32,000 nt of DNA, taken from positions 330,001 through 362,000 of the forward strand of contig CBDCNV010000002.1 in NCBI GenBank assembly GCA_965219535.1, in the 5' to 3' direction. The translations under genes and the position numbers were made by a program. Positions 26,923 to 28,376 of the stretch are shown one piece after another. Positions within the stretch are counted from its first letter, which is position 1; each line of letters opens with the position of its first letter. The stretch is from Opitutales bacterium. GTDB lineage: Bacteria > Verrucomicrobiota > Verrucomicrobiia > Opitutales > PNEW01. The notes beneath the pieces were generated by a model. The model was not told where the DNA came from, ran no database searches, and was given only the letters and a program-made list of their open reading frames with translations.

Positions 26923-26926
26923 TAAA

Positions 26927-26964
26927 TTTCCTAATTCATCATTCCTAATCCTTAATTTAATTCC
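26927..26964 (+). repeat. Heptamer-repeat array D (direct orientation) filling the atpA-atpG spacer
   Basis: TTTCCT AATTCAT CATTCCT AATCCTT AATTTAATTCC. About 25 of 30 positions are identical to the reverse complement of array A. Confidence 0.7.
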
Positions 26965-27843
26965 GTGGCTAATACTCGCGATATCAGGCGCCGCATCAAG
27001 TCGGTAAAAAACACCGCTCAGATTACAAGAGCGATGCAACTCGTCGCGGCTTCTAAAATGAAACGCGCCCAGGAAAGTGCGTTGGCCGGGCGGCCTTATG
27101 CCGTATTGATGGCTGAGATATTGAGCAAGCTGGGAGGACGGGTGAGTGATATTAAGCATCCTTTCCTTGAAGAGCGTGAGGTTAAGACACGCGGGATTCT
27201 TGTCGTCAGTACGGATAAGGGACTATGCGGTGCACTCAATTCCAATGTCTTTCGTCGCATTGCGGAAATAGAAGGCGAAGCCCGGTTTGTCGCCATTGGC
27301 CGTAAAGCTTCCCAATTTCTTAGTCGTACGCGACGGGAATTGCTCGCGGAATTTACCGTTTCTGATCGTGTCCTCTTTTCTGAGGTACGACTACCGGTCG
27401 AGTTTTTGATTAATGCCTATCTTGAAGGGAGTGTGGATACGGTGGAATTACTCTATCCGCGATACGTTAATCCTCTTGTCCAGGACCCGATACTTTATCC
27501 ACTTATACCGATCGAGAACTTGAACAGTGTCATTGATAAACTGGGGCATCAATTGGGTGAAGCCCCGCTTGCCCACGATGAACGTGAAATTCATTTCGAA
27601 CCCGAAGCCGAAGCCATCCTTGGAGAACTCCTTCCATTGTTTATAAAACAGGAAGTCTACCAAACGGTGCTCGAAGCGAAAGCTTCTGAGCACAGCGCGC
27701 GTATGGTTGCCATGAAATCCGCTACCGATAATGCCAACAACCTGGTCGATGATCTTACGCTGCAATATAACAAAGCACGCCAGGCGGCCATCACTCAAGA
27801 AATCCTCGAAATCTCAGCGGCCACGAGCGCTGCATCAAATTAG
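26965..27843 (+). CDS. atpG: F0F1 ATP synthase subunit gamma
   Basis: MANTRDIRRRIKSVKNTAQITRAMQLVAASKM and the C-terminal ITQEILEI. GTG start. Confidence 0.95.
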   Translation: MANTRDIRRRIKSVKNTAQITRAMQLVAASKMKRAQESALAGRPYAVLMAEILSKLGGRVSDIKHPFLEEREVKTRGILVVSTDKGLCGALNSNVFRRIAEIEGEARFVAIGRKASQFLSRTRRELLAEFTVSDRVLFSEVRLPVEFLINAYLEGSVDTVELLYPRYVNPLVQDPILYPLIPIENLNSVIDKLGHQLGEAPLAHDEREIHFEPEAEAILGELLPLFIKQEVYQTVLEAKASEHSARMVAMKSATDNANNLVDDLTLQYNKARQAAITQEILEISAATSAASN

Positions 27844-27846
27844 CAT

Positions 27847-27880
27847 CCAATTAGGAATTAGGAATTATGAATGAAGAATT
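27847..27880 (-). repeat. Heptamer-repeat array A (inverted orientation) just after atpG
   Basis: The plus strand reads CC AATTAGG AATTAGG AATTATG AATGAAG AATT. The reverse complement is AATTCTT CATTCAT AATTCCT AATTCCT AATTGG, the same AATTCNT unit as arrays B, C and D. Confidence 0.75.
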
Positions 27881-27948
27881 TACCTTGAATTAATAGATGT
27901 CATTCTTAACAAACCAGTTAATAAAACATAATAAAAAAACCCAAAAAT

Positions 27949-27987
27949 AATTCTTAATTCATAACTCATAATTCCTAATTAATCATT
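27949..27987 (+). repeat. Heptamer-repeat array B (direct orientation) abutting the start of the four-helix-bundle gene
   Basis: AATTCTT AATTCAT AACTCAT AATTCCT AATTAAT CATT. It pairs with array A at 24 positions, with one bulged heptamer. Confidence 0.75.
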
Positions 27988-27988
27988 A

Positions 27989-28351
27989 GTGAGAGATGAT
28001 CTTGATTTAAAGGAAAGAACCTTAAATTTTGCGCGGCAGATTATAAGATTTTATTCAGCACTACCAAAGACAGCAGATGCACAAATTATTGGAAAACAAA
28101 TGCTCCGTTCTGGCACATCGATTGGTGCAAATTATCGCGAGGCTTATCGCGCGCGTTCGAAAGTCGAGTTTATCGCAAAAATGGGAGACTGCCTGAAAGA
28201 ACTAGATGAAACCTACTATTGGTTAGAACTATTAAAAACAGAAAAATACATCACACCTGAAAAGCTAGAAGCCACTCGCGACGAAACAAATCAATTAATA
28301 GCTATTTTCGTAACCATAATTAAAAAAACCAAAGCAAATCTCAATTCATAA
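27989..28351 (+). CDS. Four-helix-bundle protein of the 23S rRNA intervening-sequence protein family (PF05635/TIGR02436-like; DGR Avd is a relative)
   Basis: 120 aa. LKERTLNFARQIIRFYSALPK, MLRSGTSIGANYREAYRARSKVEFIAKMGDCLKELDETYYWLELL is the family's characteristic sequence. GTG start. The gene sits on the same strand as the atp genes, between atpG and atpD. Confidence 0.85.
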   Translation: MRDDLDLKERTLNFARQIIRFYSALPKTADAQIIGKQMLRSGTSIGANYREAYRARSKVEFIAKMGDCLKELDETYYWLELLKTEKYITPEKLEATRDETNQLIAIFVTIIKKTKANLNS

Positions 28352-28368
28352 TTCATAATTCATAATTT
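28342..28368 (+). repeat. Heptamer-repeat array C (direct orientation) spanning the stop of the four-helix-bundle gene
   Basis: C AATTCAT AATTCAT AATTCAT AATTT: three perfect tandem heptamers. 22 of 25 positions are complementary to array A. Confidence 0.8.
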
Positions 28369-28376
28369 ATCCAACC

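Follow-up and report, generated by a model that had tools for sequence, protein, structure and literature searches.

Repeat arrays and an inserted gene in the atp operon

The DNA considered here, referred to as the window, is a stretch of 32,000 nt from a member of the Opitutales (Verrucomicrobiota). Its atp operon contains an additional gene between atpG and atpD, which encodes a four-helix-bundle (4HB) protein and is framed by tandem arrays of the degenerate heptamer AATTCNT. The order is atpA (25390-26922), array D, atpG (26965-27843), array A, a loop, array B, the 4HB open reading frame (ORF, 27989-28351), array C and atpD (28377-29798). The individual elements are:

26926-26953, + strand: array D, ATTTCCT AATTCAT CATTCCT AATCCTT; solo array in the atpA/atpG spacer, ending 11 nt 5′ of the atpG GTG (pattern matches)
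27846-27880, − strand: array A, the 5′ arm; AATTCNT units on the minus strand, 3 nt past the atpG stop (pattern, Tandem Repeats Finder)
27881-27948, + strand: loop of the A:B hairpin, 68 nt, A/T-rich (folding)
27949-27983, + strand: array B, AATTCTT AATTCAT AACTCAT AATTCCT AATTAAT; G-free 3′ arm of the local hairpin, ending 5 nt before the 4HB GTG
27989-28351, + strand: inserted gene, 120 aa 4HB protein of the 23S rRNA-intervening-sequence family (S23p, Avd-like; PF05635, TIGR02436)
28336-28370, + strand: array C, three perfect AATTCAT plus degenerate units; 3′ arm, holding the 4HB stop codon and ending 6 nt before the atpD ATG
27846-28370, + strand: entire cassette (A, loop, B, 4HB gene, C), about 525 bp in the atpG/atpD spacer

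Arrays were sought over the entire 32 kb. With up to two mismatches allowed, the two-unit pattern AATTCNTAATTCNT matches 17 times in the window, compared to 5.4 ± 2.4 expected matches, and none of 100 shuffles reaches this number. Arrays D, A, B and C hold 15 of the 17 matches. Three of these four arrays are also recovered by Tandem Repeats Finder (TRF) with period 7, namely at 27849-27880, at 27947-27980 and, with 3.6 copies at 100% identity, at 28343-28367; the sole further array of this period in the window is TCGAATA at 6122-6137 with 2.3 copies. Array D is the weakest of the four, lies under the TRF score cut-off and was found by the pattern. A previous sequence-only reading had described heptamer arrays filling the spacers around atpG and the inserted gene, one of them inverted, with nothing comparable elsewhere in the 32 kb. 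Both searches agree with this description, and array A is indeed found on the minus strand. The identities given there to atpG, atpD and the 4HB gene also hold. Two distances have to be corrected: B ends 5 nt and not 1 nt before the 4HB GTG, and C, with its degenerate fourth unit counted, ends 6 nt rather than 8 nt before the atpD ATG and overlaps the 4HB stop codon.

The cassette leaves only about 10 nt of the spacer outside, 2 nt toward atpG and 6 nt toward atpD. An atp transcript would bear array A in its purine-rich form, AATTAGG AATTAGG AATTATG AATGAAG AATT. A promoter and terminator scan detects no promoter-like or terminator-like sites on the + strand of the spacers. Rfam, run in E-value mode, matches no family to the region and gives one chance-level match inside atpG. 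There is no rRNA match in 26500-28800; the cassette sits between atpG and atpD and not within 23S rRNA helix 9, 25 or 45.

The inserted gene matches PF05635 (‘23S rRNA-intervening sequence protein’) with E = 1.2e-21 and TIGR02436 (‘four helix bundle protein’) with E = 1.1e-28, and a profile of its close homologues matches PDB entry 2RLD (five chains) with E = 2.5e-31. Its nearest homologues are from Verrucomicrobiota, and the top genome match is an Opitutales metagenome-assembled genome with the identical order atpG/4HB/atpD. The ratio of nonsynonymous to synonymous substitution rates (dN/dS) is 0.18-0.24 against orthologues at dS ~0.45 and 0.05-0.14 against closer strains. The 4HB protein is therefore maintained by purifying selection. 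The Pfam list of one orthologous locus (L002, ±10 kb) contains no reverse transcriptase; no search aimed at template or variable repeats was made.

Heptamer arrays at other 4HB loci

Our census comprises 88 loci, of which 80 are from a genome collection (4HB homologues 54-82% identical, with crude gene calls for the metagenome-derived ones) and 8 are annotated plasmid loci with more distant homologues (35-54%). The 80 loci are mostly from Verrucomicrobiota, with some from Acidobacteriota, Chloroflexota, Nitrospirota, Desulfobacterota, Gammaproteobacteria, Bacteroidota and Planctomycetota; all 88 together span at least nine phyla. Period 7 accounts for 230 of the 510 TRF rows in the 80 loci, and period 14 or 21 for another 84. 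The period-7 rows cluster within 100 nt of the 4HB gene: 73 rows lie on its upstream side and 87 on its downstream side, while 20 overlap the gene. At least one side of the gene carries an array in 74 of the 80 loci, and 52 of them have arrays on both sides.

The orientation of these arrays is equally regular. Upstream of the gene, 63 of 75 arrays are of the purine-rich GAA type, as array A is, and 10 are of the TTC type, whereas downstream the complementary TTC type prevails with 65 against 11. For 58 of 82 loci, the two flanks form an inverted repeat that outscores all shuffles. Units found most often are TTCATCC, TTCATAA, TTCTTCC, TTCTGCA/C and TTCTTAA, and AATTCAT of the window is TTCATAA in another phase. 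The layout of the window, a two-array hairpin followed by the ORF and a further array, recurs in L018, L030, L081 and the Planktothrix locus L177. In 47 loci with downstream arrays, the array ends a median of 6 nt before the start codon of the next long ORF. These 47 arrays are almost devoid of G (T 750, C 511, A 340, G 42, i.e. 2.6% G).

All 8 plasmid loci, from Chloroflexota, Cyanobacteriota, Bacteroidota and Spirochaetota, have heptamer arrays flanking the 4HB gene, with units that are lineage-specific. Nostoc flagelliforme carries four copies of AATTCGT, the 4HB gene and four copies of TTACGAA; the arms are CAATTCG and TTGCGAA in Nostoc punctiforme, and CAGTTAC and 13 copies of TCACTGG in Euhalothece. 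Planktothrix has GATTTAC / CGTAAAT / CCCCAAT hairpins on either side of the gene. On plasmid pTS1 of Treponema saccharophilum (L178), about 45 GAAAGNG units lie some 330 nt upstream of the gene and are followed by their complement CTCTCCG, which is repeated downstream. Seven of the 8 plasmid genes are co-oriented with both annotated neighbours and lie inside operons. Some of these are defence operons (L174-L177; NZ_CP128401, NZ_CP112878, NZ_LR882951), where the 4HB gene stands between helicase and N6-methylase, between csx2 and cas1, or between DISARM DrmD and BREX PglX. Among the 80 metagenome loci, crude calls give both neighbours in the sense of the 4HB gene in 36 cases and both opposed to it in 4.

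The arrays thus belong to the 4HB gene and not to the atp operon. The suggestion of the sequence-only reading that they are the terminal repeats of a small mobile cassette is well supported, as most of the 88 loci have a PF05635 gene between inverted arrays and decayed copies are present in relatives. Heptamer type and 4HB protein similarity correlate weakly but significantly (Mantel r = 0.22; 0 of 2000 permutations as high), which is explained equally well by co-inheritance. One contig, L031, contains two 4HB genes of different subfamilies (1175-1537 and 3639-4001), the first beside GAATTAT/GAAGGAT and the second beside GAATGGA.

Conservation and decay in related atp operons

At the site found in the window, the gene is present in 13 orthologous loci of related strains and species. 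Across strains, the 4HB/atpD spacer measures 11, 18, 25 or 32 nt. These steps of 7 nt mean that array C gains and loses whole units, a length polymorphism that the sequence-only reading had proposed to look for. Array C is shrunk to 1-2 units in strains of the L003 type and in L013. Strains of the L003 type retain both hairpin arms but have exchanged the 68-nt loop for one of about 100 nt with no relation to it. Array D is conserved in the orthologues L003, L004, L012 and L013, and also in the sister lineage L185. The cassette is old and conserved at dS ~0.45.

Loss of the gene can be followed in other relatives. L185, with an AtpG 91% identical to that of the window, has no intact 4HB gene. 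Its atpG/atpD spacer of 278 nt consists of a 17-unit GAATGAA/GAATTAA array, the initial bases of the window's loop, a remnant of the 4HB gene comprising its final ~20 codons (IRDETNQLIAIFVTIIKKK) and, abutting the atpD ATG, an array in + orientation that has expanded. The purine-rich arm (L185 3380-3500) is built of 17 tandem units, GAATTAA four times and then GAATGAA twelve times. Here the arms have expanded while most of the gene was deleted; the arrays therefore outlive the gene. In L182-L184 (AtpG 70% identical), the atpA/atpG spacer contains an array in − orientation, a relic of the 4HB C-terminus and an array in + orientation. This arrangement is a decayed cassette, at the very site of the window's solo array D. 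More distant relatives mostly have short atpG/atpD spacers of 19-70 nt without a 4HB gene.

Taken as a filled/empty comparison, these loci provide inverted arms, an empty spacer of 28 nt (L186) and decayed copies (L185, L182), with relatives that are either decayed or at most 70% identical in AtpG. Other 4HB cassettes occupy atp spacers as well: L102 has one between atpG and atpD with CTGAAGG/CCTTCAG arms and an AtpG only 58% identical, and L147 has one between atpD and atpC with TTTCGAA/TCGAAAA arms. Hairpins without ORF are found in spacers of the relatives L103 and L099, and the flanking sequences of the 80 loci likewise contain inverted pairs of arrays with no ORF between them. Many relatives have solo arrays that stop a few nt before the ATG of atpG or atpD. 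The comparison suggests a decay series from intact cassette to ORF-less hairpin to solo array, and array D is probably the relic of an older cassette at the last of these stages.

Further small genes are inserted in atp spacers of relatives (L111 3419-3894 and L153 1853-2500; also L112, L154, L158, L160, L167 and L172). The atpG/atpD spacer can hold a ParE-family toxin gene (PF05016, E = 2e-14) preceded by a 71-aa ORF, and in seven loci the atpA/atpG spacer holds a gene with an ORF6N domain (PF10543, E = 5e-33). On the 3′ side of three of these seven ORF6N inserts, a heptamer array of the AAATCGA type immediately precedes the atpG ATG, and the ParE toxin–antitoxin insert has no heptamer array. 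The tight association is therefore with 4HB genes. Selfish genes seem to have landed repeatedly in these spacers of the atp operon.

The surroundings of the operon hold a few other features. A repeat of period 8 with 3.5 copies, TCCACTCA, lies at 22677-22704 in the spacer 5′ of atpB. At the other end of the window, a tRNA-Met gene (31097-31172) is located downstream of an HpcH-family gene and is followed by A/T-rich sequence (31180-32000). The related strain L002 has two IS3-type transposase pairs (13254-15304) after the same HpcH gene, and this region beside the atp operon is strain-variable.

Pairing between the arrays

Arrays A and B are predicted to form a hairpin of 29 pairs with the 68-nt loop and a minimum free energy of −33 kcal/mol (z = −4.4); none of 200 shuffles folds equally well. 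The sequence-only reading had given the same loop and 24 pairs. RNAduplex yields −27.9 kcal/mol for A:B, −22.1 kcal/mol for A:C (25 pairs, enclosing the 4HB ORF) and −22.4 kcal/mol for A:D (25 pairs). Shuffled partners (200 shuffles) never fall under −20.2 kcal/mol, and all three duplexes are stronger. The statement that A could pair with any of the other arrays therefore holds for the predicted isolated duplexes.

Folding of the whole cassette forms A:B alone. The A:B hairpin is predicted in 6 of 6 orthologue types at −18 to −31 kcal/mol, including the strains with the replaced loop. For locus L013, A:C and A:D reach only −14.2 and −15.0 kcal/mol, and C is nearly lost in several strains. We therefore reject A:C and A:D as conserved long-range pairings; of the complementarity expected in related loci, only that between A and B is conserved.

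Interpretation as a probable IVS-type cassette

We consider it probable, with some reserve, that the arrays are the repeat arms of a cassette of the intervening-sequence (IVS) type, that is, a promoter-less PF05635 4HB gene bounded by inverted tandem heptamers and placed in the atpG/atpD spacer. The cassette is probably selfish. An IVS-type element is expected to have a stem of at least 20 bp next to or around the ORF, and here the predicted A:B stem has 29 pairs and the A:C stem 25 pairs. Such a cassette would be transcribed passively with the atp operon, and base pairing of its purine-rich arm A to a pyrimidine-rich one would create a double-stranded RNA of 25-30 bp. B would be the local and most stable partner of A, and C would provide the ORF-enclosing arrangement that is usual elsewhere. 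By analogy to the Coxiella 23S rRNA IVS, the stem would be cut by RNase III, and the length and geometry of the predicted A:B stem are compatible with a substrate of this enzyme. The G-free arrays, which directly precede the atpG, 4HB and atpD start codons, would act as unstructured leaders without a Shine–Dalgarno sequence that keep the downstream cistron translated, because of which an insertion could be tolerated in an essential operon. An effect of the arrays on translation initiation, already proposed from their position, is plausible. Slippage would spare the stem, since an arm made of tandem repeats pairs in any register.

Several points weigh against this interpretation. The layout of the window (arm, loop, arm, ORF, arm) is unlike the commonest one (arm, ORF, arm), and A:B might be a separate, older relic and not part of the same cassette. 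The antisense strand of the window folds better than the sense strand (−44 versus −33 kcal/mol). Mismatches between arms across loci show no excess of G:U over A:C (32 versus 27) and 148 of another kind, mostly whole-unit type switches, so that pairing could be kept at the DNA level; this mismatch test is uninformative for separating selection on RNA from selection on DNA. No mechanism of mobility, target-site duplication, clean boundary or recent filled/empty pair is found among the relatives compared. A target duplication is not readable because the nearest relatives without an intact gene are decayed (L185, 91%) or too distant (70% or less). For the 80 metagenome loci, the orientation of neighbours was taken from crude ORF calls, and as GC-rich contigs give spurious antisense ORFs (e.g. 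L091), we gave more weight to the 8 annotated plasmid loci. Finally, RNase III cleavage and the leader function are steps that we infer.

The sequence-only reading offered, among others, an RNA switch: array A would alternate between B, C and D as partners and thereby tune how atpG, the inserted gene and atpD are processed or translated. The energies of the three duplexes, each better than every shuffled control, and the position of every + array shortly before a start codon would fit such a switch, but we regard it as very unlikely. The fold of the entire cassette offers A:B only, the alternative pairings are not conserved (L013; C with 1-2 units in L003-type strains and L013), and no Rfam family matches the region. 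Cross-complementarity of A with B, C and D is automatic, since all arrays derive from one heptamer family. Moreover, 4HB genes in unrelated operons have such arrays too, irrespective of the host genes, so the arrays are no atp-specific regulator. At the other extreme, the arrays could be a generic low-complexity spacer that arose by polymerase slippage and has nothing to do with the inserted gene. Several bacterial groups have an excess of heptameric repeats in their intergenic DNA (PMC4692102), and lone arrays do occur in many other atp spacers of the relatives, which half bears out the refuting observation named in the sequence-only reading. However, the concentration of arrays within 100 nt of 4HB genes and their fixed inverted orientation largely refute this idea already, and within the 32-kb window arrays occur at this locus only and are conserved over dS ~0.45. 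It is hardly credible as an explanation.

A more serious competitor, although still an unlikely one, is an element that acts at the DNA level only, where the inverted arrays are terminal inverted repeats or recombination sites, or are kept by slippage and gene conversion, acting as single-stranded or cruciform DNA with an incidental structure in the transcript. The absence of a G:U bias agrees with it, as do the many whole-unit switches, which suggest DNA processes at the level of units. Similar cassettes with the same heptamer types in distant phyla imply joint horizontal transfer of gene and arrays, 4HB cassettes sit in atp spacers of lineages with only 48-58% AtpG identity (L102, L147), and the ORF-less hairpins resemble MITEs. 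On the other hand, neither a transposase or integrase is associated with the cassettes nor is a target-site duplication seen, and an element of DNA alone does not predict the strand-specific traits, namely co-orientation with the neighbours (7 of 8 plasmid loci; 36 versus 4 in the metagenome loci), arrays that abut the start codon and a G-poor sense strand. The equivalent stem in Coxiella is an experimentally demonstrated RNase III substrate, and the DNA-level and RNA-level readings are mutually compatible. The arrays could also serve as multimeric binding sites for the encoded 4HB pentamer, an Avd homologue (PMC10053308), for autoregulation, RNA protection or copying of the cassette. The weak correlation of heptamer type with the protein, the two subfamilies beside different heptamers in L031 and the purifying selection on the protein speak for such sites; simple co-inheritance would give the same correlation, the 10 kb around the orthologous locus contain no reverse transcriptase, arrays on their own and hairpins without an ORF occur commonly, and in L185 the arrays persist and even expand after gene loss. 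We hold a binding-site role to be improbable.

We therefore return to the IVS-type cassette, and the locus is rated here as a putative IVS-type element in a messenger RNA rather than in 23S rRNA. A wider generalization is tempting, and we offer it tentatively. PF05635 genes with inverted heptamer arms might be pan-bacterial ‘messenger-RNA intervening sequences’, of which the 23S rRNA IVSs would be the special case noticed first. They would be promoter-less selfish cassettes that invade operon spacers before start codons, are tolerated through RNase III-processed arms and a leader, and by their decay seed many of the STRR-like (short tandemly repeated repetitive), GGGAATC-like and TAACTGA-like arrays in cyanobacteria, Verrucomicrobiota, xanthomonads and others.

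Comparison with known systems

Three observations have so far stood unexplained and unconnected: the role and origin of the highly abundant TIGR02436 genes (often annotated in defence and CRISPR loci), the origin of 23S rRNA IVSs and the over-representation of intergenic heptamers in several phyla. The present data tie all three together, as the gene travels with inverted arrays, lies co-oriented in operons before the next start codon and decays to hairpins and solo arrays. The separate pieces, namely S23p ORFs in 23S rRNA IVSs, the Coxiella heptamers, Avd homology, intergenic heptamers and 23S_rRNA_IVP genes between cas genes, are already known. In the searchable literature, we did not find the general rule that PF05635 genes standing alone have inverted heptamer arrays at their borders, are co-oriented in operon spacers, abut the next start codon and decay to hairpins and solo arrays; the only paper found on 4HB (IVS) genes with heptamer repeats is that on the Coxiella IVS (PMC4990558).

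The 23S rRNA IVS of Coxiella burnetii contains an S23p ORF and a 28-bp terminal stem that is cleaved by RNase III (Warrier et al. 2016, PMC4990558). GACAGAT heptamers, in 2-3 copies depending on the strain, lie directly upstream of this ORF, and RNase III makes its 5′ cut where the first repeat starts (PMC4990558). S23p-carrying 23S rRNA IVSs are also present in Leptospira, Brucella and Xanthomonas (cited in PMC4990558). The resemblance to the cassette of the window includes the PF05635 ORF for a pentameric four-helix bundle, complementary termini with a stem some 28 bp long, strain-variable numbers of tandem heptamers next to the ORF, the lack of an own promoter and the location as part of a host RNA; the Coxiella element, too, is regarded as selfish (PMC4990558). 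In contrast to Coxiella, the host RNA is here a polycistronic mRNA (atpG/atpD spacer) and not helix 9, 25 or 45 of 23S rRNA, the heptamer is AATTCNT instead of GACAGAT, and a local hairpin is formed upstream of the ORF through the additional internal arm B. Decay is reported for the Coxiella ORF (PMC4990558), whereas the protein of the window is under purifying selection. Cleavage by RNase III is demonstrated for Coxiella and predicted from sequence here.

Heterocystous cyanobacteria reportedly carry STRR heptamer repeats, said to have been described by Mazel et al. in 1990. GGGAATC repeats in Xanthomonas and GGGGAYT repeats in Nostoc, many in convergent pairs, have no assigned function and were read as quadruplex formers (Rehm et al. 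2015, PMC4692102). TAACTGA repeats of Beggiatoaceae, cyanobacteria and Bacteroidetes lie a few nt upstream of start codons, and a role in translation was proposed (MacGregor 2015, PMC4679880). A term search finds no mention of the four-helix-bundle gene family in PMC4679880 and PMC4692102. The arrays of the window share with these repeats the tandem 7-nt units, the frequent position between co-oriented genes and the variable copy number; like them, Xanthomonas repeats are often inverted pairs and TAACTGA arrays lie near start codons. However, AATTCNT in Opitutales fits no published class of unit or taxon, and its G-free sense strand is the opposite of the G-rich, quadruplex-type repeats.

A further relative of the inserted gene is Avd, a basic protein that binds nucleic acids. 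Avd is a component of diversity-generating retroelements, and the 23S rRNA IVS protein family is homologous to it (PMC10053308). The homologous four-helix-bundle fold is shared, whereas the 4HB gene of the window stands alone in an operon spacer and no reverse transcriptase is found within 10 kb of the orthologous locus L002.

23S_rRNA_IVP genes wedged between cas genes, e.g. cmr3/IVP/cmr2, have been called CRISPR-associated (Zhang and Ye 2013, PMC3936711), and the same association is reported by Altae-Tran et al. (2023, PMC10910872). Similar to these cases, we find the family between genes of operons, here csx2/4HB/cas1, DrmD/4HB/PglX and helicase/4HB/methylase. The association was read as functional there, whereas the present data suggest invasion of operons of many kinds, including the housekeeping atp operon. 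The published calls may thus reflect an operon-invading habit and not a role in CRISPR. If the RNA-processing model proposed above is true, it would call for caution in reading a function into a 23S_rRNA_IVP gene next to cas genes, and it would provide a general way for a selfish gene to inhabit an essential operon without polar damage.

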